DNA from: Ophelia neglecta
Taxonomy: Eukaryota
Assembly: GCA_965285935.1 (NCBI GenBank)
Contig: OZ260665.1
Span: forward strand, 17,422,001 to 17,486,000
Length of the DNA: 64,000 nucleotides
Direction: 5' to 3'
Both the position numbers and the translations under genes were made by a program. Shown one piece after another: positions 2,240 to 50,673 of this stretch. The notes beneath the pieces are model-generated. The model did not search any database. It was not told the origin of the DNA and worked only from the letters and a program-made list of their open reading frames with translations. The number at the start of each line of letters is the position of its first letter. Positions within the stretch are counted from its first letter, which is position 1.

Positions 2240-2355
2240 CAGTGATACAGCTGCTGAGATGCAGGGGGTTGAGAGGATTCCAAATTTCACGACCAGAAGA
2301 AAATGAAGGTTATAAGTCTTTCCCCAATCCAATTAGTATGTCGATCTCTATGATC
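2240..2355 (-). repeat. Decayed tandem duplicate of the innexin C-terminal coding segment
   Basis: Translates KIIEIDILIGLGKDL*PSFSS versus the true EILAAELLLALGEDLKPPVSS; gatacagctgctgagatgcagg is shared at 2244 and 2388. Confidence 0.7.
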
Positions 2356-17359: not shown

Positions 17360-19555
17360 ACGAGATCCACCGGACAAAGGGGCTTCCAAGCGATTAAAGG
17401 TGAACGCGGCTCAGAGAGGGTCCTTTTCTTAAAAACCATCAGTGTCGTTCTCACATCTTAATGAATATACGTAAATACCGGAGAGGTTCTCGGACAAAAG
17501 TTTCATGATGGTAGTTCAAATGCTATTCATGTCACCCAGTGAAGTTAAGTACTCGAGGCAATTTTAAAACTAATCTAGATCAAAATTGAAACATATTAAA
17601 AGGAAACCAATTTATCATGCATTCAAATTGTTTTAGTATGAATAAATATTAAGGATACAAATACAATATAAAATAACAAAGATTCTGTTTTTTCAGAAAG
17701 TTAAATCTATAGATAAATTTAGATCTGGATATGTTACTATTAGCAAATAAAATGCTTTTGCCTACATTGGAATTTATGTTTTTATATCGACATTAACAGC
17801 TAATTAACGGTTTTATATCTATATATATTTAATTTTAAATGACTCTATTCGCTTTATATACATGTAGACTCTTCAGATAGTTTGTTATAAATATTCCGAT
17901 TAGAAATAAAGGGCATTTATCACGGTCCGTGTTTAAACGGAGACGGAGAAATGTACTCGCTTGGCTCCGGTTGTGTAACTACTTACAAGACACAAATCAC
18001 TTGTTACGGCGTTACGGCAGCCTAGGCCAATTAGTGACGAAGTTGGTCCGGCATGTGGCGCCCCCAGTTTATCGCCAGCCGCAATGTGTCAGTACTAAGT
18101 GTATCTAAGCAAACAAGTCACGTGACAGTCATGGAAGGAAGCTGCCAGCAGCGTTATTTTGTTTGTTCCCCTTTGACCGGGCATCTGTCGAATAATAATG
18201 TAAGTTCTGATAATAATAATAACAGTCCTTTCTTGTAAATTTATCATGGTGTATGTTCGTGCAGTTTATTTACGCTGTCTTTTCGTAATTTCAGCAAACC
18301 TACTGATATTTCTGATGAAGGCTAACCGTCGTTCGTGTCGAGAAGAAAATAAAATGTCGTCAATAGTGTGTATATACTGGTACCAGACTTGTCATTTATC
18401 CGTGTCGCAAGAGTTTGGACGTCACACCATTGTTATATTGCTAGTAACGTTAGTACACAAAAAAATAAACACATACCCAGCTACCATTTTCCGCTGGTCT
18501 TGTGTGATAAGACAGTGCAAAGATTGGTTATCTAGAGACTTATTACATAAACGCTTACATATCCAGGAAGTGACGTAGCACTGCGGCTAACAGTGGTGAT
18601 GCTATAATAATGTAGATTTAAGTTCATAGACAACAGACATGTTTTTTCGTCTCAATGGCGTCAACCGCAGACCTTGGCAAATTGTCTGGTGGCGTATTAT
18701 CCTCCACGACAGGGATATATGGACCTGGCTGTTGGTTGCCAGTAGGTTCGGAAGAGGTATTTTTCTATGAATAAACTTCTAATAAATTCAAATAATTGTT
18801 ATCTGCCTCAGCTGTGTCATAACTGACGTCTTGGCTGAATTTACTTTGTGTAATCATCCGATGAAAATAGATCAAAATTTGCGTTGTCCATATTTAAATG
18901 CACGCTGCTAGAACATGTCTGCCTACTGTGTCACGTGGTCAGTTGACGTGTGGCCCAGGTGAGTGATTGGACGAATGAATAGCTACTTTGGGTTGATTAT
19001 CAATGGGGCGGGGCTTACCCATGATGTTCACCGTTTGCACACAAGGAGTTTGGATATTTACAGCTGTTAAGTCAGTTAAAATTTGATTGAACCAGATAAG
19101 TCTTCTTCCTCGAACACTAAATAGTGTATTACGTGTACTTGATTGGCTTGAAGTATAATGAAACAGTTCTTTAATAGAATTCATAATGTTTTGACACTGA
19201 GGGCGGTGCCAAGGCCATGATGTAGGCCTAGTAACAGCCTAGCAACAGATACTCGTTACTGAGCCCGTGGAGGGGAGGGGGGCTGTCAGGCTTGCTAAGT
19301 CTCGCTACTACGTAGGTCCCCTGATAGCAACCCCCCCCCCCCCCACCCTTCCTCCTCCTCCTCCTCGTCAACCGGCGGACTGACAAGTACCTATCACTAC
19401 AAGATGTGAAGTGGGGAATGAGGAGTGGAGAAAAAGTGACACATGTCCCGATTAACAAGTTTACAAACTAGTATTTTGAAAGTTTTTTTTTTACTTTTAT
19501 TACTTTATTCTATGCATGAGATGATAGGGCTATAAGAGGCTGTCTTTTACAAGTA

Positions 19556-19732
19556 CAGTGAAACCTGCCTTACAGACCACCTCTCTAATCAGACCACCTG
19601 TCAAACCAGACCACTGATGTAAGGATCTTTTTGTATACTTTCAATGTTGAATAACCTGTCTAAACAGACCACCTTAGAAATAAGACCCGTATTTCCAGTC
19701 CCTTTGGTGGCCTTAATTCACAGGTTTCACTG
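19556..19732. mobile_element. pogo-like MITE copy
   Basis: Same TIRs and TA flanks; the matching copy in unit C is at 50497-50673. Confidence 0.85.
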
Positions 19733-26340: not shown

Positions 26341-27399
26341 TGTTGCGTGACTGGTGGGTCAGCAAAAGTTCAAACAGGTATTTTAAATTCAACCAGTTTT
26401 ATTTTAACAGCAATAACTATGGTCATAGTTGGGGGTTTCTTATGGCTGGCAGAGGCAAGGCAAGGTGCAATACTTAAATTTTCAAGTCTAGAAAATTTCA
26501 AGTCCCGAACTTCAAAGTTAATAAAAATTTCTAATCTCTTACTAAAAGTCCAATGTAGCTGTGATTTCTTAATAAGCTCGAATTTATATGGATGTCTATA
26601 AGCTCCTGGTGGACAGTTCAATCACAGTTCTTGGCAAAATTCGAATTTTCGAATTTGGTTGAAAGTCAACCTTGAATTTTCGAATGAGGTATAAACTCGA
26701 ATTTTCGAATGCAGGTATAAACTCGAATTTTCGGGAGCAATGCTTACAGCCAGGACTTGAATTTTCGAGTTCTGACAGCTGAGTAACACATTTCTGTCAA
26801 GTTACCAAAAAGAACCAACAGAGCGAAAGAATGAACGTAATAAACGTCAACAGTTCAATTTGAATGTAAGAAACTGAAATATTCAGTATACTCAGCCTAG
26901 GCTGTATATTTGAAGCCAATTTGGCTTTTAAAATGGCATGTTTACGAAGTGAAGCGTAGGAGACAAACTTGAAAATTCGAGTAACGCGCCCCCTTTTATA
27001 GTTTTCTGGCCAGCAGACGGTGCTGAAATCCTAGGAACGCCACTATGATGTAGGTCGCAGGTCACATAAATTACGTCACACAAGGCCCACGAGATTTGGC
27101 ACAATACACCAGTATCGCGGTAAAATGTACCTATTCATGTCGTATCTACTAAATTACGAGTGATAAATAAGTTCTTTGTCACCGGGAACCATTGCTTGCT
27201 TAATGCCAAGAAATACACTAAAAGTTACGGCACCATCATGCAATGTTTAGTCAAGTGGGTCAAAATGGCGGTGGCACATCCGGTCTTCTGTCAACGATAC
27301 AATTTGGAGCTACAAAGTTTGTTACAGCAATAAAAGTCTCAAGTGTTTTCGCTCAGGTAACAACAGTTTATTAAAGGTCATAAAACACGGTACACCACA
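26341..27399 (-). repeat. Gypsy 3' LTR
   Basis: Direct repeat of 44013-45071; preceded on the minus strand by the polypurine tract AAGAAGGGGAGAG (27400-27412). Confidence 0.97.
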
Positions 27400-27697
27400 C
27401 TCTCCCCTTCTTAAAAACTCCCCCATCTGACTTGCTAGCACCCGTTAACTGAACACAATGGTACACAGGTAAAATTTCCTAATCCAGACTAGATACTTTA
27501 TAATATAAACAGCTGATAATCGGATAATAACAATAATATGAATATAGAATTCCTTAATCCAGGCTACGAACAATGTGACACATCCTAATCCAGACTAGAA
27601 TAACAAGGTAATAATAACAGTCTTAATCCAAGCTATTAAAATCAATAGAAGTAATGTCACAGATGGCTCCCATCTGAGGCGTCCAGGAACTTTAGGC

Positions 27698-28847
27698 TTA
27701 GCGCAGCATGGGCTGGAGAATGCTGGCATCTGCCAAGCAGACTACTTGGTGCAAAAGTTTGTCCGTTTCCATGCATTTCGTGCAGGCGGCTACATAAGGC
27801 TGGTGGGGGTGCCCATGTAGGGGTCCCAGGCACTCAAAGAGTTCATCAAAAACCTTACCCAACTTGGCCCGAGTAGACACCGATGAAGTGGCAGGTCCTG
27901 TCATTTGATGCAATGTCGTGGCATAGTCTTTCAAACTGTCAATAAACACTGTTTTTAACCCATTAAAGTGGTAGGTTAAGTCCTTTTTAATGTGAGTAAA
28001 TGCTGTGACACCTCTGACATTTCTGGGGATGTCTCAGAGTGGCTTGCTGCGGCACCCGACGTCTGGTCCTCCTTTGTCCTCGTTGGCGTGGTATCCAGGA
28101 CAGCTTGAGGGGTTGGTTTGTAAGTTTTGCCGAAATAGTTCCAGTTGGAACATACGGCGATAATGACAGACCAGTCAGCGTCTTCCTTTTCCGTCGTTCA
28201 TCCACACAGGGCGCACTTAATGGACAGATCGGTGACGACAAGTTTAACATCAGATCCAATGAAGGCATACTAAGGACACCCGTCTTCCTCTGAGGTGTCG
28301 CCTCCAGCGGCGTCGCCAAGGCGTCCACGTCAATTGGCCCAAGATCCGGCAGCTTCGCTGGGGGAACGCACGCTGAGCTGTCCAGCATTTCCTTCTCCAC
28401 CAGCTGAGACAGCGTGGTTGCACTCTTTGGTAAGAGGAGGGGCCTTTTGGCCTTGACCGGCCGAATGTCCGAGGTGCACGTCTCGATTTTTCGCTTGACG
28501 TTACTCTTCTTTGCTTGTTGGTTAGTGTCCTTTTTGCCCTGAGTGGCTTTCACCGGCGTCGCAGTGACCTGTCGACCGTCCCGAAGCACCCAGCCCTCTT
28601 TAAAAATGTCCCTCGCTGTGGGGTTGGGTTTCAATTCACTTGGCGCGCTCATCTGCTCCAACCTGTTTTTTAGGTGTCCTTTTGATTCCTTGTGCAAGCT
28701 ATAATCATAGCGAGCCCGGCAATACCATAAACACTTGTCCACTGGACATACATATGGCCACTCGTCCTGCGGGATATGGTTGTAGATATGGCGGAGTACT
28801 TGTACTTTCTTCTCACTGGAAAAATCTCCCCTCTTGCAGGAAAACAT
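27698..28847 (-). pseudogene. Gypsy accessory ORF3 with N-terminal C2H2-type zinc fingers (frameshifted)
   Basis: FSCKRGDF..VLRHIYNH-IPQDEWPYV-CPVDKC-x12-H-x5-H, then a basic/low-complexity middle and a helical C-terminus with HGHPH..CTKC in a shifted frame (27698-27949). It lies between integrase and the PPT on the element's sense strand. Confidence 0.7.
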
Positions 28848-29049
28848 GTTGATCTAGGATCAAGAATAAAAACTTTTAGACCGTTAATATATATATCCTT
28901 AATAGAAAACAGTATCAACTTGCCAGTGCCAGCCAAATGTCAGTCTTTTATAAGTTATTCAGGGAAAGAATTAGTTTTCTTTTCCAATTTTCCAAATTGG
29001 AACCTAGGAAGGGGGTTAATTTGTTATGATGGACGATTTTTCTGGTCCC

Positions 29050-32000
29050 GCCCTTGTTCATTTGTATCTGAAAGTTTAGATCACCAATAGTCTTGGTGAT
29101 TACATAAGGCCCTTTCCATTATTTTCCAGTTTGTGGCATATACCAGGTTTAGTCAGTTCATTTAGTAACCAGACAGCATCACCGACTTTGTATTTGATGA
29201 CAGATATATTGGTGTTGTATGCAGCCTGTTGGCTTCTAGTTTTAACATGGAGGTATTTTCTGGCTAATTGGTGAGCCACGTTTGAGTCTTTTATTAGTTC
29301 AGCGAGATAGTCCACTGGACTCTTGTAGCCGTGGTCCTTGGTTGGTGGGCCATACACTAGTGTGGTAGGAGCACGAACTTCCCGTCCCGTCATGAGAATA
29401 TTCGGAGTGAATTTGGTGCTTTCATGTGGGGAGGAGTTGTAAGCTGCTGCGAGGCACCCCAAGTTTCGGTCCCATTGGTTTTGTTTACCACCGATGTAAG
29501 ACTTTATCATTTTTATCAAGGTAGAATTGAATCGCTCCACCATTCCATTGCCTTCTGGATGTCGGGGAAAAGTCCGTGTTTTGTTAATCTTGAGAATTTT
29601 ACACATTTCCTGGAAAAGTTCCGACTCATAGCTTCGAGCCTGGTCTGTGTGTATACTCAGAGGTACGCCCCAGGTAGCAATGAATGTGTTGACCAAAACT
29701 TCAGCGCAGGCTTTGGCAGTGGCATCCGGTATGGCATGAATCTCAACGTACTTGGTGAAGTAGTCTTGAACCACCATTACATATTTATTTCCTCGAGGAG
29801 TTCTAGGTAATGGCCCCAGTAGATCAGTAGCAACTTTGTCCAATGGGAAGCCGGTCTTCACCTGTCCCAGCGGCGCTTTTGGTTTTCTTTGCAGCTTCCG
29901 GTTGGCTCCACAGATCTCACATTGCCTAACCCACTGATATATACATTCTTTCATTTTATACCAGTAGTACTGTTTCATGAGCTTGATATAAGTTTTCTTA
30001 TAACCCATGTGCCCTGCCAGAATGTTATTGTGACCCATCCCTTATATGTCGCTTTTGAGTTTTTCAGGCACAATAAGCTGTTGAGTTGCAGAAACAGGAT
30101 CTCTTCTGACCAGCCTCCCCTGATCGAATGACAGGTTGTCCCAACTCAACCAGAGATGTCTCAGGACCGGGCTTTGGAACGACACATCTTTGAGAGGTGG
30201 TCTATTTGGTGACTCATTCTTCCAGATGATTATAGGATAGATATCAGGATCTTCTTCTTGCATTTTTCTAAACATTACGTTATCAGATGAGTCAACCCAA
30301 TTACACGTAGTAGCAGTTGATATTGCAGGGTTGGCGGATAAAGGAGTTTCTGCCTGACTTGTTGAATTGTCCCGCTTGGCAGCCTTCCTTGTGGTCACTG
30401 ACCGTGTGGGGAGTTTTTCTTCATGTTCAGATTTTTTAATACAGGCTTTACATGGTCCACATGGTAATTTTTCCTCTTCACAGGTGCAGTTATCTGGTTG
30501 ACAAGGACCCCTTGACATGCCGTCTGCATTCGAGTGACGAGCGCCAGGACGATATTCAATAGTAAAATCATAGCTAGCTAACCACTCTAACCATCTTGCC
30601 GTCTGTCCTGTAGGGTCTCTGAGGCGAAAAAGCCATTTCAGGGGCTGATGATCCGACCGAACGATGAATGGACGTCCAATCAGATAGTTCCTGAAGTATT
30701 CAATGAAGTAAACTATAGCTAAAAGTTCTTTCCTGGTTACACAGTATTTTCTTTCAGCTTGATTCATGGATCTGCTGGCATATGATATAACTCTTTCAGT
30801 GCCATTCTGCAACTGCGATAAGACACCGCCAACTCCATAGTCAGACGCATCGGTGTCCAGAATAAAATTGCTTGTTTGGTCTGGATAAGCTAGAATTGGT
30901 GCTGAGGTAAGTTTCCCCTTTAGAGTTTCAAATGCGGTTTGACAGTCCTGTGTCCAATCAAAAGATTCCCCCTTTCCCGTCAATCGGGTGAGTGGGCTTG
31001 CTATATTTGCAAAAATCTTTATAAATTTCCTATAATAGGATGCAAAACCGATGAAAGATCTCAACTGAGTAACTGTTTTGGGTCTCTCCCATTTCTCTAC
31101 TGCTACGATTTTGCTCAATTCTGTGGAGATTCCATCTTCGCTAACTGAGTGACCCAAAAACGTAACTTGTTTCTGTAGAATATGGCATTTTGAAGGTTTC
31201 AACTTGAGGTTTGCTTGGGTCAGCCTTTTAAAAACATCCTCCAGTCTAGCCAGGTGGTGTGGTATGGTTGCACTGAATATAATTATATCATCCAAATAAA
31301 TGAAACAAGTCTGCCATTGTAAGCCACGTAAAACACTTTCCATGCAGCGCTCAAAGGAGCTGAGAGCTCCGGCCAAACCGAAAGGTAGAGAATTGAACTC
31401 GTACAACCCGGACTTTGTGACAAAAGCAGTTTTAGGCTTGTCTTCTTCTCGAACCTTAATCTGCCAATATCCAGCAGATAAGTCAACGACAGAAAAATAC
31501 TTTGACCCAGCCAGTGACTCGAAACAGTCGTCGGCCCTCGGAAGGGGGTAAGAGTCTTTTTTCGTTATCTCATTCAGCCTTCGGTAATCAATACAGAAAC
31601 GAGTGGTTTTGTCCTTCTTCATTACTAAACAAACAGGAGATGCCCATGGGCTGCTGGACTCACGGATTACACCTTGTTGTAACATAGACTGTATTTCTTT
31701 TTCTTCTTCACCCTTGAATGCCAGAGGGGTACGTCTCGGCTTCTGCCTGGCTGGTCGAGCATCGCCAGTGTCAATTATGTGTTCAACAGTATCGCAGTGT
31801 CCTAGATCAGTTTTTCCTTTAGAAAAAATATTCTGATAGTCAACAATAAGTTTCGTTAACATATAAGAATCTGACTCTGTGAGGCCCTCTGTGGCCCTTT
31901 CACAGAGTTCTAATAAATGTTCAGGTATGATCAGTGGCTTGTCCCTAATCTCGACATTTCCCACCTTTACAGCGTCATTCGGCCTAAATGACTGCTTCAC

Positions 32001-32828
32001 GGCTATTCTCCTCACTGCTTCCTCTGACACGTCATTCTCTGATTCTGAATATAACACCTGTTGTTCCGATTCGATATCAAATATTTCACCCAGACAGGTA
32101 TTACAATGCATCACTACTGGCTTGCTCTGAGGATTCAAGATTCTGATTGGAATAGTCTTTTCGTAAGGGTCCACTAACGTGGCGGCCATCTTGATAACAT
32201 ACTTTTCTTCTACTGCAGGCAGTGGTTCAAAGAGTGCTCTGTCCCTACCAATACGTAAAACGTTTCTCCCTTCTATTATCATTTCAGATTTTGCAGGTAT
32301 GACATTATCTTCCACCATAAAAACCTTGCATGCACCCACGGCATTTGTCCGTCTGACTTCTGCTTTTTCTCCCATGAGCAATCTGCCTTTCTGCAGGTCG
32401 ATATGGCAACGATGTTTTCTAAGGAAATCTAACCCAATTATCCCACAGTCACTGATGGCCGCTACAATAACTTCATGTGACACCTCTTTGTCACCGACTG
32501 CTATTTTCATTTCAGCGCAACCAAGAGTCCTGAGCGGATCTCCATTGGCCATTTCCAGCTTATGTCTTCTGTCACTACCTTCTATGATAACCGGTTTATT
32601 TTCTACAGAAAGTTTCTTGTAAGTTTAAGTTAGTATTGTCCTGCTAGCACCAGTGTCCAATAAAAAGGGAACGTCCAATTGTCCCACCCTACAGTTAACA
32701 AAAATTCCTTTTTCAGCTGCCGTTCTACTGATATGCACAACTTCAATGTCATTTTCTTCCGTACTACAGGTTTCACCGGTCGACTCTGGGCCGTTAGAAT
32801 CGACCGATCCTAGTTTTCCGACTGACAC
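29050..32828 (-). pseudogene. pol: Gypsy pol (protease, RT, RNase H, integrase) with in-frame stops
   Basis: FLLDTGAS protease; RFCIDYRRLN and FIYLDDII RT; DTDAS RNase H; GHMG..CEIC, DLLGP, TDQ, GMVERFN integrase. TAA stops at 32625 and 30042 in the same frame, and a frameshift near 29120. Confidence 0.95.
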
Positions 32829-33837
32829 GTTGGCAAATCACACTGCTCTAGTGAGCGGGTCGGAATAGGTTCCTGTGCTTTATTTCTTCTCTCTTTTTCA
32901 GGGCAGTCCTTGGCATAGTGGCCAGCCCCATTACAGGCAAAAGAGAAAAATTCTGTTTTCTGCCTCGTTACCGGTTTTGCCGAAAAATTATTGGCCACGA
33001 GCTGCTCCAATAGATGAATTGTTTTCTCCAATAGTTTCTGTAACCCATCCGTACTTCCAGGTTTCTCTCTTGGCTTCATATACTTGCTCACTTTCACTGT
33101 ATCAATATCTATATCAGAGACCTCTTCGTCATCGACTGATGGACGAACCATTCTGACAGCTTTTCGTGGGTGCTTGCCCTTCAAAGAAACATATGAGTAG
33201 TAGGCTGCTACTAAGTCCACAGCTTCGTCTAAGGTACGGGGCTTTTGTAGATATTTGACACGATACTCGGTTTCTTGATCACGGAGTCCATCAAAAAATT
33301 GCTTCAACAACATGTCCTCCTTCACCGCCTGTGACACACCAGTAGGGTAAACTCGCTGTATAAGAGATTTCAAATCAGCTGCAAATTCACGTGGGGTCTC
33401 ATTTTGTCGGATAGATCGGTTGTAAAATAGAGTTTGACAAGCTTCTCTAGTTTCAACAATCTGGAATCTTCTTTGCAAATGAAATTTTAGGAGATTGTAG
33501 TCGGTAAGCACTTCTGGCTCCAGTTCAAAAGCAAAATCTGCAGCTATGTCTGAAAGACTAGCTAACAATTGATTCAGTCTAAGATTTATGTCCACACCTG
33601 CCGTCATGAGTTCGAACCTTCGAATGAAGGTGTTCCATTTCGTCTTCCCATCACAAAGTGGTGTTCTTAACGGTTTTGGTCTGGGTAGGTCATATCTTGG
33701 TTGCTGGGGCCAGTTGTTTCCTGGATAAACCGTTCCGTCCGTGTAACCATGATAAGGCTCATGATACTCTGTTTCCCACTGCTCAGCCGCATAGAATGAG
33801 GGCTGAGAAGTAGCTCGCCTAGGCTCAGCAGCATGAT
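32810..33837 (-). pseudogene. gag: Gypsy gag, 3' part
   Basis: CDGKTKWNTFIRRFEL..QNETPREFAADL..QFFDGL..PRTLDEAV, and degenerate zinc knuckle SFACNGAGHYAKDC; the frame is open from the LINE junction to 32810. Confidence 0.85.
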
Positions 33838-34851
33838 GAAATAAAGAAAATAGCTATTCACATGAAACCAAAATCATCTTGTGGCTTTGACAATCAGTCC
33901 CCAAAATTTATTAAACAAATCCTTCCTTCTGTTATTTTTCCTTTATTACAGTGTGACTGCAGTAGGAGAGACGATGACTAGGTTTGTGTTTCATACGGCT
34001 TTATTGTTTCTTAAATGAATGCCATGGACACCTTGGGTACCGTGAAACTGTAACAAATAAACTCACGATATATTCTTTACATATTGCACAGAGATCACAA
34101 CACAATTACACATGATAACATATACAAGTAAACGATGTAACGAACCTCTTTGGCCTCTTACAGTTCTGGCTCCTACATACAGTTATACTGTCGACCGTAT
34201 CGCTGTCGACTTCACCGAGAACACATGCACTGTCGCCGCTCACATAACGACAACCGCTACCGCAGACGCGTTGATGACCACTGACCAAATCTCAATATAC
34301 CAGATATCTTAGTGCCTTACGCAACAGAGCCGAGTCTCGGTACCGGAAGGTAAGGAAAGATCCGAGATCGCTGGTCAGGTACCCTGGTCATCAGTAGTGG
34401 TCAGCGGTCTGTCACACATAGCTATTTACAGTATACATAAATAGTAGTGACTACTTTCCGACCGGCCACTTATACGGCCACTTATACTAATAAAGTAGCA
34501 ACATTTACACTCCCGCCTGGAAATTAGGTTGTTTCCACAATTTCAATATATACACTTATCGTAGCTTGATATACATTAGTCAAAGCAACAATAATAACAC
34601 AATGGGAATACCTGAAATAAAGGGACCTGCAACAATATACACGAGATTCGTCAGTTTTCATACCTCGAATTGCCGATCTCTTGAGGCACGACAATAAATG
34701 CAATGTCGAGCCGTTACTAAACGGCCTCAAGTGCTGAAATACAATTTGTCACGACGTTAGAAACTTAAATAATGAAAGGATTAGTACCGGGAACGATAGC
34801 CCTATCGACATTAGACCGATGAGATGATTGATTAGAACGGAAGACAACCGC

Positions 34852-37800
34852 CTACGATTTAGATTCTAGTAAGAGTACCAGCTTGCAGACTGGTCTCTCA
34901 TATTCAGACAAAGGTGTCAGTCGTTCACCCTTGTTGTTCAGTTTGGTATCGCCGACTGCGATTTTAACCTTTCTTACTCTTTCATCCTTACTCGGATAAA
35001 CATCAGTGACTCGAGCTAACTGCCAATGGTTTCGGGGCGAGTCATCTTTGGTTATCACAATATCCCCGATCGCCAAGTTGCGTTGTGGCCTGCACCATTT
35101 CTTGCGGGCCTGCAGATTTTGCAAGAACTCAAGGCGCCAGCGAGACCAGAAAATATTTGCGAGATACTGCACTCGTCTCCAACGCCTTCTGACGTACAAG
35201 TCGGCTTCCTGAAATTCTCCAGGGGGTGACACGACAATCTGTGACTTCATGGTCAGGATTTGGTTGGGACTGAGGGGTTTTAAGGACGTTGGGTCGTTGA
35301 GATTGTCTGTTGTCAATGGACGGGCATTGAGAATTGCGGCTACTTCCGCAAGAAAGGTTCTCAATGAATCATCGTCCAACTGAGAACCCGAACGATCCAA
35401 CAAGGTAGTCAGGATGGATCTGACAGAGCGAATCTGTCGCTCCCAAACGCCACCAAAATGACTAGAATACGGTGGGTTCATCTGGAAAGAGAAGTCACAG
35501 TTGTTGCTTAGGAGAAATTGCTTGATACTACTGTGGTTCATCTCCTTCCAACATTCAGAAATTTCGCGTTTTGCTCCTACGAAATTTGTGCCCTGATCAG
35601 ACCGCAATACGCGAATGGTTCCACGGAGGGCAATGAAACGACGGAGTGAATTGATGAAAGATGAGGTATCTAATGATGGAACGACTTCGATATGGACGGC
35701 TCTGCACGCTAGACATGTATAAAGCGCCCCGTACCTCTTTACGCGCTTACGACCTTTAGTTACACACCATGGACCAAAGAGATCTACGGCACAGAAGGAA
35801 AAGGGTGGAGCAGAATCCAATCGATCCTTGGGGAGATCGGCCATTATCTGACAGACTGGCTGACCACGATATTTTCTGCACAGGACACATTTGTGAATGA
35901 GTTCTGAAACAGCGGAAGAACAACCTATGACCCAAAACCCACTATTTCGGATCATGTTAACGGTCATGCCACGGCCTTGGTGCTGTACAAGTTCATGACA
36001 GTATTGGATAATGAGGCGTGTAGCCAAATGCCTCCTCGGTAGGACCAGTGGAAACATTTCGTCAAATGGCAAGTCCGCTCGTCTCAAGCGACCACCTACC
36101 CTTAAAAGGCCGTCTTCATCAATGAAAGGGTCCAATTTATACAATTGACTGCCTTTCTTCAAGACTGCGTGGCGTTCCTTTACACGAACTCTATCGGTTT
36201 CGGAGGCAGAAACATCAAGAGAAGACAGAACCCTCAGTTCAGTTTCAAAGGCTTCGGCTTGGGTCAGCCGAACAATCTCCCTCTCAGAAATGGAGATATC
36301 TTCTGGTGTAACGGGTAAGTTTGCTGGTTTCTGTCTTAATCGTGCTTTATATTTCAGACAAAGTGCGATGGCTCGTTTTGCTTTGAACCAGTCTGAGAAA
36401 TAACCAAGAAGGCTAGACACGAACATGTTCGGATAGTTGACTGACAACGAGTGCACTTTAACTGCCTTGACTTCGGGATCGGAGACTGTGAATTCGACAT
36501 CCTTCCCGAGAGATTGAACCGGAAGCTCTGGCTTCCACAAAAAGGGGGGGCATCTGAGCCATATGGAACTTTCAACAAACTGCCTTGTGGACATACCTCT
36601 CGACGCTTCATCGGCCGGATTTTCACCCGTCGCTACGTAACCCCATTGGCATGGCTTGGTCTGATCCCTAATTTGTTGGACTCTATTGGCTACAAATGTG
36701 TGAAATCTCTTTGCATCATTTGAGATATAACCTAGCACAATCATACTGTCCGACCAGAAGTACTCCACAACGTTTTCATAATCAAGCTCTTTCCTTAGAA
36801 TATTGCTGACCCTTACAGATACGAGAGCGGCGGTCAGCTCCAGTCGTGGTACGGTGATCACCCTCATAGGCGCTACCCGAGCCTTCCCCATGACGAATGA
36901 GCAATGAACTCGCCCTGTACTGTCAATCAAGCGAAGGTAAGAACATTGACCATAGCCAAATGTACTAGCGTCGGAAAAGTGATGCAACTCCACCCCAACA
37001 CAATCGAAACTGCGGGGACAAAACGATCTATTGATTTGGAGTGAGTCAAGGAGAAACAGACTTTCACGCCACTGCTCCCACAGCATTCTGCACTCTTGGG
37101 GAATCGTTTCGTCCCAGCCTGCGCCATCTCGACAGAGCGACTGCAAAATCGACTTTCCGACTAAAACCACAGGTGCTATCAGACCCAGCGGGTCGTAGAT
37201 AGAACTGACTGTGGACAGAACTCCTCTGCGAGTGAGGGGCCTATCCTGCAGGGTTATTCGGAATTTTATTGTATCTGACTCAATACACCAATAGAGACCG
37301 AGGGCTTTCTCGATGGGGAGTGGATCGTTCGACAGTACATCGAATTCTTGAAGACCACAGGCCCGGTCTTCCGGCCTCACAGCATCAATCAATTCCCTAG
37401 CATTGGAAACGATTTTGTGCAAGCGTAAACCACCACTAGCACAGAGAATTTGGGCTTGTTTAACCAATTCGATTGCTTCATCCACTGTTGGGAGAGAAGC
37501 GAGGCCATCATCAACGTAGAAATTGTGGCGAATGAAATCTGCGGCTGGTCGACCGAACTGCTCTTCGGCGTCGTCAGCCAACCGTTTCAGACCAAAATTG
37601 GCGCAGCCTGGGGAGGATGATGCGCCAAACAAGTGGACAGTCATACGGTACTCCACAATCGCCTTGCCGTCAAACCACAAGAAACGCAAGTAATCTCGGT
37701 GCCTTGCACTGACTGAAAACTGGTAAAACATTTTTTCAACGTCACAAGAAAAGGCAACTGAACTCTGTCGAAACCGACAGAGAACTCCTATGAGCGTGTT

Positions 37801-38600
37801 TGTCAGATCGATGACCGATGACTCTTTCAGCATATCCCCGTTGGATCATGTTTTCAATGAAATCACTGTACTCCCGGTCAGGCTTCAATCGCATGAGCCG
37901 GCGCAAGGCTAGGTGTTTGTTGTTTGGCATAATCGGGTCGTCTTCCTTGAAGGGTAGAGGCATTTCATAGTGTTTATCTCCCCTTTTGATTATCCCCTTC
38001 GACATCATGGATAAGAACTGACTGTCTTCAAAGGAAAGAGGAGGGCCACACTTGTGGTCATCGAAATCCATCTCAAGGATGCTAGTGACCCTTTCAGTGA
38101 GGACCTCATGTACGCTAGTTCGCAAAGTAATAGCGACAGAAGGTAGCTCACTCGTGATGACACAATGGCTCGAACCAAAACCATCACTGTCAACTCCTCT
38201 GTGATCTACGATGCCAACTATACCCCAACCCAAATCAGTCCTTATTGCAAAGGGTTCATTGTACACAGGGGGTATGACATCACGAGGAGCCAAGGCACGG
38301 GAACAGTCATAACCAATGAGGAGACCGATGTGACAGTCACCCAGTGGCATAAGAGAATCGACAATTTTCTCCAAGTGAGGCCATTTACTGGCCATTTCAG
38401 GGGTAGGAATGTGTGTCCGATCTGCTGGCATAATTTCCCTGGTATATGTAGAGGGCAGCTGTAATTTCAGATCACTGTTGTAACCTCTAACAACTAAACC
38501 GTCTACACGGAAGCTTCGGATGGGCTGGTTAACACACGACATTGTTGATAGGGATAAGTTCACTGGAACACCTGTAATTCCCAATTTCTCAGTGAGCCGT
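34852..38600 (-). pseudogene. pol: BEL/Pao pol (partial protease and RT, RNase H, integrase)
   Basis: IGLLIGYD, YEMPLPFK, DVEKMFYQF, HLFGASSSP, FYVDD, LHHFSDAS, PRLEL, HQG..CVLC, DLFGP, SDQGTNF, GGVWER, RWRRVQ. Frame breaks at ~38598 and ~37815 fall where conserved blocks are missing. Confidence 0.92.
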
Positions 38601-40910
38601 TGAACTTGCTTTAACCTCACCTGGCGAGGTTGGTGTTGTCCTTTCAACACCAGATGACACATTTCCCGGTGAATCACCGTGGAGCAGAGTGGGATGCCTT
38701 TTATGACAGGTGTCGCAAGTATCCCGATTCTTACAAAATTTGGATCTATGACCGAACTGCAGACAGCCAAAGCAGAGCCTCTGGTCAAAGACAAACTGCC
38801 TTTTCTCTTGTAGAGACAAGGCAGACAATCTTCCACAAGAGCTAGTTTTATGTGTTCCATTACACATAACACATAAAGGTATATACGACGGAACCGTACT
38901 GTCATTACTTCTGTGATCAGCAGTCTGCTGCGTAGGCCTTGGATGTACAATTGATGCGAGCACCTTTTTGGATAAACCCTGCCCTTTATCTGACGAACGA
39001 TCCTTATCACAGGGAGCAGAGGACCCTCCACCTTTTAGAGCCTGGAACGAAGTAATGGGGTCACAAGCGATCTCTGCTTCCTGCACTACAAACTCTACAA
39101 ATTCCTGAAACAAGGGAAAGGACTGGGCTTCCCTTTTACCAGTGGCTACAATTCGTGCCCATCGAACAATGACCCAATCGGGGAGTTTCATTAACAATTT
39201 CTGGTTTTCCTGTTCATCATTTAGAACAGTGAGCGACCGTATAGTCCGCATGGCTACCAAACATTGACGTAAAAAATCTGCAAATTGGCGCAGAGCGGTC
39301 CCATCTCTGGGCTGTATCTTAGGCCAAGAAGAAAGCCTATCTCGAAAAGCCTTTGCTACAATGAAAGGATCTCCGTATCGCTGATCGAGCAAAGTTTTAG
39401 CTTCACTATAAGCATCTTCGGTAGACAAAATAAAGCAACCCTCTACAACACTTCTGGCCTCTCCACCAAGATAACGCTTGAGATAATGTATTTTCTCTTC
39501 TTGGGGGATATGTCTATGGTCAACCAAGGCAGAAAAGGCTGATTTCCACGCAGGATATTGCAGGGTATTCCCTGAGAACACACCGGGCTCGGGAGGGGCC
39601 AGCCTATTCAACGACAACTGTTCTGCCAACAGACCTACCATGGCCTCGTTACTCAAACCTTGTTGAGAGTAGGACGAATGACCAAATGGACATTGCGGAG
39701 GGTTTATCAATGGAGATTCTTGCCTGGACGACATCACTGGGCCAGACACAGAAATAGAGGGAACAAGCGGTGCATATCCATGATAGGGCGCACCTGGCTG
39801 AAAATTTGTGAAATGACCAACAGAGGATTGCAACAAGTGTGTTCGTGAAGACTCTTGTCCAGGAAACGACACTTGATTTGACAACGAACTTGAAGGACCA
39901 GGCGGTGCATAGCTATGAAAGGACACATCAGCTTGGCTAGATGTGAAATGACCAACAGAGGATTGCAACAAGTGTGTTCGTGAAGACTCTTGTCCAGGAA
40001 ACGACACTTGATTTGACAACGAACTTGAAAGACCAGGCGGTGCATAGCTATGAAAGGACACATCAGCTTGGCTAGATGCTAGTCCAGTCATAGTCGACGA
40101 TTGCTGCCCATACGTCGGCTGCGTATGCACGGAAATTGTAGAGGAATACATAGTTGATGCCACCGAAGACAAAGTCGGTGCCCTATCGCAAGATTTAGAC
40201 GCAACTGTGGCAGTCGGTTGCATTGTCAGAGTCCGAGCAATCTGATAAGTACTCGAGCCAGCGGAGGGAGTTGGGGCAGGTTCCATCGAAGACGTTGATG
40301 GGGCAACCTGGTACGATACTGATGCCGCAGCTGCCACTGGACATTCCCCAGGAGTACGTGAGGGAGCAGGGTTTGGATATGTGGTTTGAGAATCTAAAAA
40401 CTTGGACAAAATGATAGATTTATTTTCCACCTCTGACACATCATCCTTTCCCTTACCCAGAGATGCTAAGTCATCGTATTCCTCAAAGGTATCTATCACT
40501 TTGAGTTGGGCTTCGGTCTCTTCCATTTCCCTCATAGTCTGTAATTGCTCTAAGGCATATTTTTGCTCTGACTCTGCCTTAAGATAATTTGATTTTACTT
40601 TCAGGGACTCAGAATGCATAGCCAGTTCTAACCGTTTTTGTGAAGTGCTACTAGCACGAGAACTTTTCCTAGACTTTAGGCTCCTGCATCCTGGGCCTTC
40701 ACGGTTTGACTTGGGGGGAGGAAAATACAGTCTACCTTCATATACAAGCTTAGACAAGGTACCCCCCGGTATATCAGGTATATTTCCTATGTCTAAATTG
40801 TCCAGTGGACGCCCTAGATTATTTCTGTATTCTAGAAATTTCTCTGTCCTGACTGGACCTATTCCATAGAGGGTTAGTAAATCATCTTTCGTGATGTCAT
40901 TCACGTCCAT
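38589..40910 (-). CDS. gag: BEL/Pao Gag with N-terminal helix-hairpin-helix domain
   Basis: PEPGVFSGNTLQYPAWKSAF..EKIHYLKRYL..RYGDPF (Pao gag core); three Cys/His knuckles CVMC..H..C, CFGC..GH..C, CDTC..HP..LH; N-terminus DVNDITKDDLLTLYGIGP. Confidence 0.9.
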   Translation of the reverse strand: MDVNDITKDDLLTLYGIGPVRTEKFLEYRNNLGRPLDNLDIGNIPDIPGGTLSKLVYEGRLYFPPPKSNREGPGCRSLKSRKSSRASSTSQKRLELAMHSESLKVKSNYLKAESEQKYALEQLQTMREMEETEAQLKVIDTFEEYDDLASLGKGKDDVSEVENKSIILSKFLDSQTTYPNPAPSRTPGECPVAAAASVSYQVAPSTSSMEPAPTPSAGSSTYQIARTLTMQPTATVASKSCDRAPTLSSVASTMYSSTISVHTQPTYGQQSSTMTGLASSQADVSFHSYAPPGLSSSLSNQVSFPGQESSRTHLLQSSVGHFTSSQADVSFHSYAPPGPSSSLSNQVSFPGQESSRTHLLQSSVGHFTNFQPGAPYHGYAPLVPSISVSGPVMSSRQESPLINPPQCPFGHSSYSQQGLSNEAMVGLLAEQLSLNRLAPPEPGVFSGNTLQYPAWKSAFSALVDHRHIPQEEKIHYLKRYLGGEARSVVEGCFILSTEDAYSEAKTLLDQRYGDPFIVAKAFRDRLSSWPKIQPRDGTALRQFADFLRQCLVAMRTIRSLTVLNDEQENQKLLMKLPDWVIVRWARIVATGKREAQSFPLFQEFVEFVVQEAEIACDPITSFQALKGGGSSAPCDKDRSSDKGQGLSKKVLASIVHPRPTQQTADHRSNDSTVPSYIPLCVMCNGTHKTSSCGRLSALSLQEKRQFVFDQRLCFGCLQFGHRSKFCKNRDTCDTCHKRHPTLLHGDSPGNVSSGVERTTPTSPGEVKASSTAH
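39672..40076 (-). repeat. 135-bp (45-aa) tandem repeat inside BEL gag: two near-identical copies and one diverged copy
   Basis: SSQADVSFHSYAPPG(L/P)SSSLSNQVSFPGQESSRTHLLQSSVGHFT x2, then NFQPGAPYHGYAPLVPSISVSGPVMSSRQESP. Confidence 0.9.
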
Positions 40911-43584
40911 GATTGAATGTATGAGTTACTAAATGGTTGTCACTGTGCAAATGAAGATGAATGAAATCGTTGTTGGTTCCCACAAGTACCTTTCAAATGG
41001 GGTTCGCAAATGAAGGACCAACAACGAAACACAGTATTAAAGGTGCAACACAGTATGAAAATGCCCAAGGAATTGAACTCAATGTCCCTTGGAAAAGTCA
41101 TGCATGAAAACTCGAAGTACACACGTGAGCACAATAACAAATTCAAATACAACATGCACATGTTCATTCAAGAGAATACGAAGACTATCAATCCATTTAA
41201 TATAAAACGATGAAAATGAATTTAAATCACAATAAATTACAGTTCAAACAAGTCCGTGAGAAGAAAGTGCGCCATGCTAGAAATCACAAAATGGTGGCAC
41301 TTCTATCCTTGACGGAGGAATCCAGGTAGCATACGACACAGCGCAGACGTCGTGAAGGAGTGGCATAGAGTTTCACTGTGACTGCAGTAGGAGAGACGAT
41401 GACTAGGTTTGTGTTTCATACGGCTTTATTGTTTCTTAAATGAATGCCATGGACACCTTGGGTACCGTGAAACTGTAACAAATAAACTCACGATATATTC
41501 TTTACATATTGCACAGAGATCACAACACAATTACACATGATAACATATACAAGTAAACGATGTAACGAACCTCTTTGGCCTCTTACAGTTCTGGCTCCTA
41601 CATACAGTTATACTGTCGACCGTATCGCTGTCGACTTCACCGAGAACACATGCACTGTCGCCGCTCACATAACGACAACCGCTACCGCAGACGCGTTGAT
41701 GACCACTGACCAAATCTCAATATACCAGATATCTTAGTGCCTTACGCAACAGAGCCGAGTCTCGGTACCGGAAGGTAAGGAAAGATCCGAGATCGCTGGT
41801 CAGGTACTCTGGTCATCAGTAGTGGTCAGCGGTCTGTCACACATAGCTATTTACAGTATACATAAATAGTAGTGACTACTTTCCGACCGGCCACTTATAC
41901 GGCCACTTATACTAATAAAGTAGCAACATTTACAACAGATTTTTAACAGTATGATCAAAACGAGTGAATTTCCAGAGGACATGAAAATATCAAAGGTACT
42001 TCCTTTCTATAAGTCAGGTGACCTAACAAATGTTACAAATTACAGACCTATTTCAATCCTACCTACATTTTCCAAAATATTCGAAAGGCTGATATACAAC
42101 AGATTATATAATTTTTTCACCAAGCAAAATATATTTTTCCCTTCTCAATATGGCTTTAGAAAACATCATTCGACAGAACATGCAACCCTAGAACTAATAG
42201 AACACATTACCCAGAAACTAGACCAAAAGAAACATGTTGCTGCAATATTCATAGACCTTACCAAAGCTTTCGACACCATCAAACACACTATTCTACTTCA
42301 GAAACTATTTCATTATGGCATAAGGGGTACACCCCATAATCTATTGAAAAGCTATCTCTCTAATAGGTCACAATATGTTCTCTTCAAACAAAAATCATCA
42401 GAATTACTAAAACAGAAAGTTGGTGTACCTCAAGGGTCAATCCTTGGGCCCTTATTCTTCTTAATTTACATAAACGACATATATAAATCACTGAATACAA
42501 CATCATAACCTATCCTGTTTGCTGACGACACCAGTGTAATTATTCATAATAAACATTTAGAGAGGTTATACAATAACATCAATCACGAACTCTCAAATAT
42601 ACAAATCTGGATTAAATCAAATTTCCTATCCCTCAACATTAAGAAAACTAAATTTATGATCTTCAAAAACTCTAACAACCCACCAGACCAGATTCCCGAT
42701 TTATTTAGAGTAAAAATAGACAATACAATAATAGAACAAGTTTCTACATTCAAATTTCTTGGCATACATATTGATGAACATCTCAATTGGAAAACGCACA
42801 TAAATGAAAAATGTAAGAAAGTGTCCCAAATCATAGGGCTGATGAATCGCCTAAAACAATATCTTCCAACATACATTCTAAAAATTATCTACAATTCTTT
42901 AATACAACCTCATCTCTTTTATGGTATCACAGCCTACTATAACTGCACAAACTTGTCAACATGCAATAGACTTTTTCTCCTTCAGAAACGGGCCATGAGA
43001 ACCATCTCAAAATCATGGTACCTGGCCCATACGGAACCACTTTTCAAATCGCTCAAAATTCTAAGATTAAATGATCTATATTTTGTCAAAGCATTAAAAA
43101 TCTATTTCAACATCATACAATCCAAATGCCCAAACTTTACAAAACAATCGGTTGAACTTGTTGACCAAGGCAAAAAACAATACTACACCAGAAACAATGA
43201 CGTTATTGTAAGAAAACCCTTTAGAACAAACATTATTAAACAATGTCTTTGGTTTAAACTGCTCAGTGTCACCAACCAAATCCTTCACCACTACAAAATA
43301 CCACTAAGTCAATCATACAATTACAAAGCATATTTCATAAATACATATACTAACACCTGTAATATAAATAGCTGTTACATATGTAACAAAACTCTTCTTG
43401 TCTGATATTGTACGTCGTATATATTTGTCTGCACACAGCAGTTTATTGGTTTTCTGAAATGTTTAGTGATCTCGTCACGCTTAATATTGTACATCATATA
43501 TACTATGTCTCAAAGGGGCGGCCAGCAAAAACGGCAGATGCTATAGCTGGCGTCCAGAATAAATGTATTTCAATCAATCAATCA

Positions 43585-43940
43585 ATGATTTCTGGTTGCA
43601 AATCTGAATGTTTCTCTGGGTCGAGCATCCAAGTGATCCCGGCGGGAGCCAAAAGAAACAGAGTTCGAATTCAACAGTCCTTGTCGGTTGCCTTGTGAAG
43701 GGTCCTCCCTGTCGGCTGATAGGTTTGGTTGTGCCAAATTGTTCTTTTCTGGTGAATGATCACCGGCTGCTGATGTGCTGGGGTATTCTTGTTGATCCGG
43801 TGCTGGTTGTATGTTGATAGGTTGTCTAAAGCTTCAGTGATGCCTGAGTTGTCGCTGAAGGCTTGATTGTTCTTAGGTAGGATGGTAGACTTCTCATTTT
43901 CTGATTGCTCCGTCTGCTTCATGCCTTTTCTCGGGGCCAT
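43585..43940 (-). pseudogene. gag: Gypsy gag, 5' part (frameshifted)
   Basis: ATG ~60 nt after the PBS (MAPRKGMKQ). After a frameshift near 43830 it reads ..RETFRFATRNH, which joins AAEPRR at ~33832 across the LINE insertion. Confidence 0.7.
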
Positions 43941-43997: not shown

Positions 43998-44009
43998 CTT
44001 CTGACACCA
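43998..44009 (-). other. Primer-binding site complementary to a tRNA-Leu 3' end
   Basis: TGGTGTCAGAAG 3 nt inside the 5' LTR; complement of ...CUUCUGACACCA of metazoan tRNA-Leu. Confidence 0.8.
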
Positions 44010-44012
44010 AAA

Positions 44013-45071
44013 TGTTGCGTGACTGGTGGGTCAGCAAAAGTTCAAACAGGTATTTTAAATTCAACCAGTTTTATTTTAACAGCAATAACTATGGTCATAG
44101 TTGGGGGTTTCTTATGGCTGGCAGAGGCAAGGCAAGGTGCAATACTTAAATTTTCAAGTCTAGAAAATTTCAAGTCCCGAACTTCAAAGTTAATAAAAAT
44201 TTCTAATATCTTACTAAAAGTCCAATGTAGCTGTGATTTCTAAATAAGCTCGAATTTATATGGATGTCTATAAGCTCCTGGTGGACAGTTCAATCACAGT
44301 TCTTGGCAGAATTCGAATTTTCGATTTTGGTTGAAAGTCAACCTTGAATTTTCGAATGAGGTATAAACTCGAATTTTCGAATGCAGGTATAAACTCGAAT
44401 TTTCGGGAGCAATGCTTACAGCCAGGACTTGAATTTTCGAGTTCTGACAGCTGAGTAACACATTTCTGTCAAGTTACCAAAAAGAACCAACAGAGCGAAA
44501 GAATGAACGTAATAAACGTTAACAGTTCAATTTGAATGTAAGAAACTGAAATATTCAGTATACTCAGCCTAGGCTGTATATTTGAAGCCAATTTGGCTTT
44601 TAAAATGGCATGTTTACCAAGTGAAGCGTAGGAGACAAACTTGAAAATTCGAGTTACGCGCCCCCTTTTATAGTTTTCTGGCCAGCAGACGGTGCTGACA
44701 TCCTAGCAACGCCACTATGATGTAGGTCGCAGGTCACATAAATTACGTCACACAAGGCCCACGAGATTTGGCACAATACACCAGTATCGCGGTAAAATGT
44801 ACCTATTCATGTCGTATCTACTAAATTACGAGTGATAAATAAGTTCTTTGTCACCGGGAACCATTGCTTGCTTAATGCCAAGAAATACACTAAAAGTTAC
44901 GGTACCATCATGCAATGTTTAGTCAAGTGGGTCAAAATGGCGGTGGCACATCCGGTCTTCTGTCAACGATACAATTTGGAGCTACAAAGTTTGTTACAGC
45001 AATAAAAGTCTCAAGTGTTTTCGCTCAGGTAACAACAGTTTATTAAAGGTCATAAAACACGGTACACCACA
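44013..45071 (-). repeat. Gypsy 5' LTR with candidate TATA box
   Basis: Direct repeat of 26341-27399; TATAAAA on the minus strand at 44672-44666. Confidence 0.95.
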
Positions 45072-45937: not shown

Positions 45938-48426
<2,489 letters not shown>

Positions 48427-50496: not shown

Positions 50497-50673
50497 CAGT
50501 GAAACCTGCCTTACAGACCACTCCTATAATCAGACCACCTGTCAAACCAGACCACTGATGTAAGGATCATTTTGTATACTTTCAATGTTGAATAACCTGT
50601 CTTAACAGACCACCTTAGAAATAAGACCCGTATTTCCAGTCCCTTTGGTGGCCTTAATTCAAAGGTTTCACTG
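50497..50673. mobile_element. pogo-like MITE copy
   Basis: TIRs and TA flanks; duplicate of 19556-19732. Confidence 0.85.

Follow-up and report, generated by a model that had tools for sequence, protein, structure and literature searches.

A selected zinc-finger gene in the envelope position of Gypsy retrotransposons of Ophelia neglecta and its possible role in regulating the element's own RNA

A Gypsy element that lacks env is commonly assumed to consist of gag and pol only, and the env gene of errantiviruses is expressed from a spliced RNA. Additional open reading frames (ORFs) in retrotransposons with long terminal repeats (LTRs) are already known, and spliced expression has been stated for third ORFs (ORF3s) in general (PMC5408684). 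The one Gypsy accessory regulator worked out in the literature consulted is CERV of Cer1, a Ty3/Gypsy element of C. elegans, which is a nuclear, Cys-rich protein made from a spliced mRNA, with a proline-directed phosphorylation switch, and is needed for export of the genomic RNA (PMC10309623). The ORF3 reported here from Ophelia neglecta resembles CERV in being an accessory protein with a spliced mRNA (predicted for ORF3), a nuclear location (likely for ORF3), a Cys-rich site, a coiled coil, structured domains on flexible linkers, and a proline-directed phosphorylation site (predicted in ORF3). [quoted passage not shown] No likeness to CERV was seen in sequence or fold searches with ORF3 as the query. 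Errantivirus env occupies the same slot between integrase and the polypurine tract (PPT), and some errantiviruses also use tRNA-Leu priming (PMC13524379), but ORF3 has no signal peptide, membrane segment, or F/gB-type ectodomain. The ORF3s of the bdelloid elements Juno and Vesta are likewise family-specific, non-env, and located behind pol, with several kinds per genome, one of them a nuclease (PMC5408684). Unlike the ORF3 described here, they are DEDDy exonuclease, GDSL esterase, and coiled-coil or membrane proteins, and the word 'zinc' is absent from PMC5408684. VANC of Arabidopsis VANDAL is also a fast-diverging accessory protein beside family-specific repeat arrays, but VANDAL is a plant DNA transposon (PMC5735166), no homology was seen, and motif sharing among the ORF3 families does not track the protein. 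The likeness to classical C2H2 pairs (CTCF, SALL4, and BCL11A) and to U1/matrin/JAZ fingers is one of predicted fold over ORF3 residues 1-67, and ORF3 differs from both in its mixed pair, degenerate finger 1, conserved extension to residue 90, and lack of a Pfam family at cut-off. No paper on a C2H2 or TatD ORF3 in Gypsy elements was found in a literature search that left aside Repbase Reports, where a database entry may exist; nor was one found there on the ORF3 family described here.

The window (the whole stretch of 64,000 nucleotides analyzed, positions 17,422,001 to 17,486,000 of contig OZ260665.1) contains a Ty3/Gypsy (Metaviridae) element on its reverse strand (Table 1), assigned by its LTRs with target duplication, primer-binding site (PBS), and PPT and by the order of gag, protease, reverse transcriptase (RT), RNase H, then integrase in Pfam. 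The tRNA-Leu PBS is exact in four of the five families that carry this ORF3 and has one mismatch in family D. The copy in the window is dead: gag is split by a BEL/Pao element and a LINE-like piece, pol is interrupted by a stop codon (30042-30044) and by a loss of frame near 29118, and ORF3 is broken twice. The LINE-like fragment, at about 41935-43584 beside the BEL/Pao element, was named by eye from an RT motif and is presumably of LINE origin. The BEL/Pao element is young, and the start of its Gag weakly matches a helix-hairpin-helix domain (PF12836, E 0.04). Elsewhere in the window, at about 9500-12000, 16500-19700, and 47000-50600, are three duplicated blocks that contain collagen-like Gly-X-Y repeats.

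Table 1. Features of the ORF3-bearing Gypsy element and associated sequences (window positions unless a contig is named)
Feature	Position	Strand	Remarks
5' LTR	44013..45071	-	1059 bp; 10 substitutions vs 3' LTR; 4-bp target duplication GTAT
TATA-like box, 5' LTR	44666..44673	-	Putative promoter
Candidate splice donor	44612..44620	-	GT at 44617-44616, 56 nt after TATA box; putative, weak, found after the fact
PBS	43998..44009	-	Matches last 12 nt of tRNA-Leu
5' part of gag	43585..43940	-	ATG 43940; severed from remainder by insertions
Nested BEL/Pao element within gag	33946..41934	-	564-bp LTRs, 99.5% alike
3' gag (zinc knuckle) and pol (protease, RT, RNase H, integrase)	29100..33839	-	
Predicted ORF3 splice acceptor	28854..28871	-	Pyrimidine tract + TAG; AG at 28855-28854, 6 nt before ATG 28847
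ORF3	27698..28847	-	ATG 28847 to TAA 27698; breaks near 28138 and 27988
ORF3 N-terminal domain, residues 1-97	28557..28847	-	Finger 1, WPY linker, finger 2, conserved Asn75
Finger 1	28838-28776	-	C-x2-G...H-x3-H
Finger 2	28748-28674	-	C-x4-C-x12-H-x5-H
Disordered linker	28182..28511	-	Basic runs 28511-28488 and 28196-28182
TP-x-x-DE site in linker	28214-28197	-	Window copy without Thr
ORF3 C-terminal domain	27701..27988	-	DLTYHF helix + coiled coil, helix, H-x-H-x(5-11)-C-x2-C (27817-27773), helix
Four copies of 15-nt motif, 3' untranslated part	27478..27635	-	At 27635, 27598, 27567, 27492
3' LTR	26341..27399	-	
PPT	27400..27412	-	
Satellite (L193-L195)	G000:C1:12414292-12428751		29-bp unit behind ISL2EU-like THAP/DDE_Tnp_4 transposase

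The original prediction placed a frameshifted ORF of about 380 codons between integrase and the PPT on the sense strand of the element, and its position and strand are evident in the letters of the window, as are C-x4-C-x12-H-x5-H in finger 2, the PYxC linker (here WPYxC), the basic runs KKSNVKRK and RRKRK, and the helical C terminus with His and Cys residues. The frame is indeed shifted, but by two breaks instead of one, and the natural open length is 385 amino acids in copy L002 and 384 in copy L003. Because the ORF3 of the window has two breaks, its first frame ends in out-of-frame text, to which the Arg-rich stretch and CQRCH belong. Near 27988 the break falls inside a single-base run that is longer in overlapping contigs, and it may be an assembly slip. 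Two C2H2-like fingers had been claimed, of which finger 2 stands, but finger 1 lacks the second Cys here and in three sister families. The absence of a membrane segment holds for the window copy, with a largest 19-residue hydropathy of 1.05, and the view that the protein is not an envelope is upheld by values of at most 1.46 in all 13 family proteins and by a structure model without signal peptide or membrane anchor. No F- or gB-type fusion ectodomain was matched in Pfam or PDB sequences, and the model consists of fingers, disorder, and three helices.

The ORF3 segment is present in other copies of the family, with 10 matches at five places in a DNA search of the genome, and the frame is open in L002 and L003 and also in the sister-family copies L083, L084, and L093. 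One A-family remnant (L014/L003) keeps an open ORF3, the acceptor, and the 3' LTR, with no pol upstream within 20 kb. Searching the genome three times with protein queries yielded 23, 19, and 23 matches, none of which is a host-gene copy of ORF3. In 13 of the 20 fetched 10-kb stretches, ORF3 lies directly behind a same-strand Gypsy integrase, which refutes a one-off capture or a DNA-transposon fragment; the other seven (L091, L095, L097, and L099-L102) are not host genes but broken fragments, and four of them clearly belong to family B. A nested DNA-transposon fragment was also rejected: no transposase domain, inverted ends, or patchy presence was seen.

Five Gypsy families, A (that of the window) to E, hold ORF3 between integrase and the PPT, followed by the LTR. 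Their identity to family A is 51-58% in pol and 22-31% in ORF3, and the families are young, since their LTR pairs are 96-100% alike. In a midpoint-rooted tree of 56 integrases, from which nine short rows were left out, the five families form one clade (support 100/99), and this ORF3 type is present in every one of the 13 top-ranking integrase matches out of 150. The ORF3 tree is poorly resolved, and the RT and integrase trees put family A in different places with low support. The close relative L138 has no ORF3 at all, which indicates that some lineage can do without the gene.

In five A- and B-family pairs the dN/dS of ORF3 was 0.21, 0.33, 0.16, 0.17, and 0.21 (P 0.015 to 2e-14), in agreement with the value below 1 expected by the original prediction, and it was lowest in the two folded domains; one pair had 80 synonymous vs 71 replacement changes (P 2e-14). 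Two partial pairs gave 0.47 and 0.26, and young or decayed pairs of families C, D, and E gave 0.44-0.88, of which 0.66-0.88 in decayed pairs is likely the neutral level, because dN/dS was calculated without transition correction. Integrase values from fewer than 15 codons were discarded. No positive selection on ORF3 was seen in the dN/dS of pairs. The dS of ORF3 exceeds that of integrase between L083 and both L094 (0.59 vs 0.16) and L084 (0.077 vs 0.033), a hint at the sequence level of 3' module exchange between copies. ORF3 is a real, selected, non-envelope accessory gene.

The predicted splice acceptor before ORF3 gains support from its recurrence in spacers without DNA likeness: a pyrimidine tract and YAG lie 6, 9, 9, 7, and 3 nt before the ATG in families A to E, with shuffle P values of 0.03, 0.007, 0.004, 0.10, and 0.013, the family D site being weak (7/12). 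The acceptor rule was adjusted once, from a 14-nt version that missed family B to 12 nt, and the combined P of 1e-9 overstates the case because the five families share ancestry. Since the acceptor distances are not all multiples of three and an in-frame stop lies at the acceptor in family A, ORF3 likely starts at its own ATG without Gag/Pol fusion. A donor-like GT occurs 56-57 nt after the TATA box in three of five families (A, B, and D), within GTAAGT at 57 nt in B and 56 nt in D, and at 105 nt in C and 113 nt in E. Among 22 ORF3 starts of the sister lineages, for which the Met was chosen by hand near the conserved part, a YAG lies at most 12 nt upstream in 20 and at least 7 of 12 nucleotides are pyrimidines in 18, compared with 39 of 668 integrase ATGs in the control. 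ORF3 is thus likely translated from a spliced RNA, as judged from these signals. Contigs from three sequencing runs of one sample contain no GT-AG joint into the acceptor, a result that counts neither for nor against splicing.

When 1.84 billion proteins were scanned in full by HMMER with the L002 ORF as the query, 20 matches were obtained, of which 19 are credible (P0018, a repeat protein, was dropped) and 10 cover both ends. The outside homologues are protein sequences from public assemblies in Logan and ENA. Word-index protein searches gave 1, 2, and 0 matches, the 0 being weak evidence from the query for longer, fused forms. A metagenome scan gave two loci, L210, a 10-residue match, and L209, which was rejected as a chance match inside a recombinase-like gene, and no ORF3 was found in viral contigs. 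None of the 23 ORF3 proteins reaches the cut-off of any Pfam family. In the protein atlas the top matches (0.90) share few features and fall in unnamed or C2H2 clusters, and nothing matched the C-terminal domain.

The invariant or nearly invariant residues are C4, H20, H24, P31, C34, C39, Y49, H52, H58, and N75 in the N-terminal domain and R329, H347, H349, C358, and C361 in the C-terminal domain. H-x-H-x(5-11)-C-x2-C is found in 15 of 18 family proteins, and TP-[VCLI]-x-DE, a motif defined after inspection, in 13 of 18 vs 0.03 expected from shuffles; the acidic residue at +4 after Thr-Pro may point to an Fbw7-type degron. The C-terminal domain and the TP-x-x-DE motif correspond to no family in the libraries searched. 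NLS-like basic runs occur in 9 of 13 proteins, and the Ser/Thr/Pro content of the linker is 20-31%. In a pattern scan, leucine-rich export patterns were found in 6 of 13 proteins at unrelated places, and no such signal is conserved. RS/SR pairs number 0-7 in proteins of the window's ORF3 family, which have no RS tail.

The classical C-x2-4-C pattern of finger 1 is found in family E and most outside homologues and is lacking in families A-D, P0002, and P0003, and the inter-finger linker IPQDEWPY is longer than the TGEKPY type. Finger 2 agrees with the classical C-x2-4-C-x12-H-x3-5-H spacing and has the U1/matrin/JAZ pattern (C...C-x12-H-x5-H followed by a second helix). The suggested C2H2/matrin assignment fits in spacing and second helix, but the zf-met and zf-C2H2_jaz models matched below the Pfam cut-off. 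In the AlphaFold2 model, residues 1-95 have a pLDDT of about 95, the middle is disordered, and helices 278-318, 325-347, and 359-375 surround the His/Cys site; the N-terminal domain modelled alone has a pLDDT of 88.6. Its best fold match is the DNA-bound classical pair of CTCF (5yeg; Z 4.9, rmsd 2.5, 54 aa), and classical pairs in general gave Z up to 4.9 and rmsd 2.0-2.9. Finger 2 with the second helix gave Z 3.0-4.4 against RNA-complex fingers, and finger 2 alone matched 7uqz_I (Z 4.4, rmsd 2.7, 41 aa), 6qx9_A2 (Z 3.6), TUT1 9j8p (Z 3.5), and JAZ-dsRNA 2mkn (Z 3.4). We take 7uqz_I, 6qx9_A2, and 7vpx_N to be Bud20, SF3A2, and U1C, respectively. Because the DNA-type and RNA-type matches are tied within 1 Z and all weak, the fold does not settle DNA versus RNA. 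Profile searches matched the DNA-binding fingers of 1mey (E 8e-6), Ikaros/Helios, and MBP-1, and the best viral-model match was a U1-type domain protein (E 3e-3). Whole-model fold searches, within which alone the C-terminal domain was compared, gave only weak finger matches and generic coiled coils (Z <6).

Zinc-finger third genes are the rule in one Gypsy lineage of the O. neglecta genome. A zinc-finger or HLPW pattern was found behind pol in 47 of 60 further integrase loci, with 9 in the reverse-strand control; the 60 loci were hand-picked from 150 integrase matches and are a nonrandom set that includes near-copies. The sister ORF3s comprise N-terminal finger pairs, single fingers, mid-protein C-x2-C...HLPW proteins, and RS-rich proteins with a finger and a TatD nuclease, and these types cluster on the integrase tree. 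Sister finger-pair ORF3s match the window's family by profile (probability 85, E 6e-6). Those of L137, L139, and L142 have 630-770 amino acids, a long coiled coil, poly-Ser, and an Arg/Ser-rich tail, and together with L162 they contain 12-23 RS/SR pairs. In L162 (2146-4963, plus strand), L160, and L179, the third ORF links an Arg/Ser-rich region to a zinc finger and to a TatD nuclease (PF01026, E 2e-35) and is preceded by a splice-acceptor-like site. The C-x2-C...H-x3-HLPW ORF3s (L144-L148, L155, L157, L164, L165, L168, and others) have 400-550 amino acids, with an unnamed N-terminal domain and a helical domain that appears by eye to be related to the part before TatD, and have no Pfam match. 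L188, L189, and L191 fall outside the lineage. The outgroup Gypsy element L189 has a hydrophobic third ORF (1691-2860, minus strand) without a Pfam match that by eye is possibly env-like. A motif search in supplementary material of PMC6238403 gave no match that would assign the lineage to a clade (Mag, MolGy, and the like).

Repeat motifs accompany ORF3 in several families. The 15-nt motif in the 3' untranslated part of family A (three matches at one mismatch vs 0.02 expected) occurs seven times in the family B LTR, families C and D share another motif, and the family A LTR has a third. In the LTR of the window copy there are five direct copies of a near-palindromic 10-12-nt motif (window 44260-44440), with one inverted copy (44649) immediately past the TATA box. 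For the A/B motif the genome has 682 matches vs 0 for the control, largely a 29-bp satellite of 14.4 kb that begins about 130 nt behind a THAP/DDE_Tnp_4 transposase. The satellite unit and the B repeats hold TGTA-H-ATA and the core motif holds GGATTA, sequences that resemble Pumilio- and Otx-type sites. Because it is shared with the satellite of an unrelated DNA transposase, the A/B motif is better explained as the site of a host factor than as one reserved for ORF3, and the 3' repeats are probably not private targets of ORF3. The pairs of families with a common motif (A with B, C with D) do not correspond to the likeness of the finger-2 helices, which are alike in B, C, and D. Two ideas on the repeats were rejected. 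The 3' repeats fold as RNA hairpins but no better than shuffles (z -0.3 to 0.6; L089, a piece of gag, was left out of the six folded stretches), and the count of general 5-3-5 palindromes beats every shuffle only in family D.

A nuclear accessory protein, as the original prediction proposed, can soundly be inferred from the sequence. We tentatively favor, with a rough probability of 0.4, that ORF3 is a Rev/CERV-like nuclear RNA regulator of its own element. A donor about 25 nt after the transcription start would join the ORF3 acceptor, and this splice would remove the PBS, gag, and pol as one intron, so that ORF3 mRNA would be the default product. The protein would accumulate, likely enter the nucleus, bind the element's own RNA through the U1/matrin-type finger, and oligomerise, probably via the coiled coil, with proline-directed phosphorylation at TP-x-x-DE probably switching it. 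Unspliced genomic RNA would then escape splicing and leave the nucleus, as with HIV Rev and CERV of Cer1, and output would shift to full-length RNA for Gag, Pol, and packaging. This reading is preferred because the default product of such a layout is the short spliced RNA, finger 2 belongs to the RNA-binding type, sister ORF3s have RS tails, and CERV is a precedent with a phosphorylation switch; Arg/Ser-rich tails are typical of RNA-processing proteins. Against it stand the lack of a conserved export signal and of an RS tail in the window's ORF3 family, the classical pair geometry, the weak donor, and the ORF3-less L138. We rank RNA-level control, which was absent from the list in the original prediction, a little ahead of transactivation or anti-silencing; targeting comes further down.

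The foamy-virus protein Tas is a model for an LTR-activating DNA-binding factor. ORF3 could similarly be a sequence-specific DNA-binding LTR transactivator or anti-silencer with the LTR repeat arrays as its sites, which we regard as only slightly less likely. The tandem C2H2 pair with its PYxC linker and classical geometry, the DNA-binding profile matches, the NLS-like runs, and the Ser/Thr/Pro-rich disordered linker all suit such a factor, as do the short repeat arrays in the LTRs of families A, B, C, and D, given that the targets of VANC are tandem repeats differing between families (PMC5735166). However, finger 1 is short of one zinc ligand in four of the families, the distribution of the motifs is out of step with the finger-2 helices, the presence of the A/B motif in a satellite behind an unrelated transposase points to a host factor, and the arrays lie downstream of the TATA box, with a significant palindrome count only in D. 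The finger pair would also serve if ORF3 anchored the integration machinery at selected chromatin or DNA, for which CopiaMBD is a retrotransposon-borne reader precedent (PMC6673714). This is quite unlikely, considering that known targeting modules are fused to integrase whereas in every family seen ORF3 stands as a gene apart, with a predicted acceptor of its own, and that three target duplications (GTAT, CATG, and ATAT) show no long target motif. Suppression of small-RNA silencing by binding of dsRNA or a host silencing protein, which is unlikely, would be consistent with the JAZ-type dsRNA-binding finger among the fold matches (2mkn), the faster divergence of ORF3 than of pol between families, the hint of module swapping from dS in B pairs, and the TatD nuclease that a sister lineage has at this position; yet one JAZ-type finger is usually too little for dsRNA binding, no positive selection was seen, and the NLS-like runs point to the nucleus. 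That ORF3 is a captured host zinc-finger piece carried without use would agree with the dN/dS of 0.44-0.88 in decayed or very young C, D, and E pairs and with L138, but it is largely refuted and very improbable: the Cys/His residues, Asn75, and TP-x-x-DE are kept across 20-30% identity, families A and B are under purifying selection, and no host-gene copy is among the genome matches.

On a larger scale, we put forward, with less than even confidence, that a large unnamed branch of animal Gypsy elements consists of 'complex' retrotransposons, in which spliced, swappable zinc-finger regulators in the env slot switch the element between spliced and genomic RNA in the manner of Rev or Tat. The regulator types would be the finger pair with H-x-H-C-x2-C, the RS-tailed, the C-x2-C...HLPW, and the finger with TatD nuclease. 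If such ORF3s regulate RNA export or transcription, Rev/Tat-like control would have arisen in Metaviridae on a wide front, and export of intron-containing RNA and evasion of germline silencing by these elements could be tested with small proteins. Such ORFs may also be miscounted as host zinc-finger or TatD genes in annotations. Decayed ORF3 fragments (L095, L097, L099, L100, and L102) cluster near a contig end (G000:C8:0.98-2.15 Mb), which is perhaps, as a guess, a transposon graveyard or piRNA cluster.
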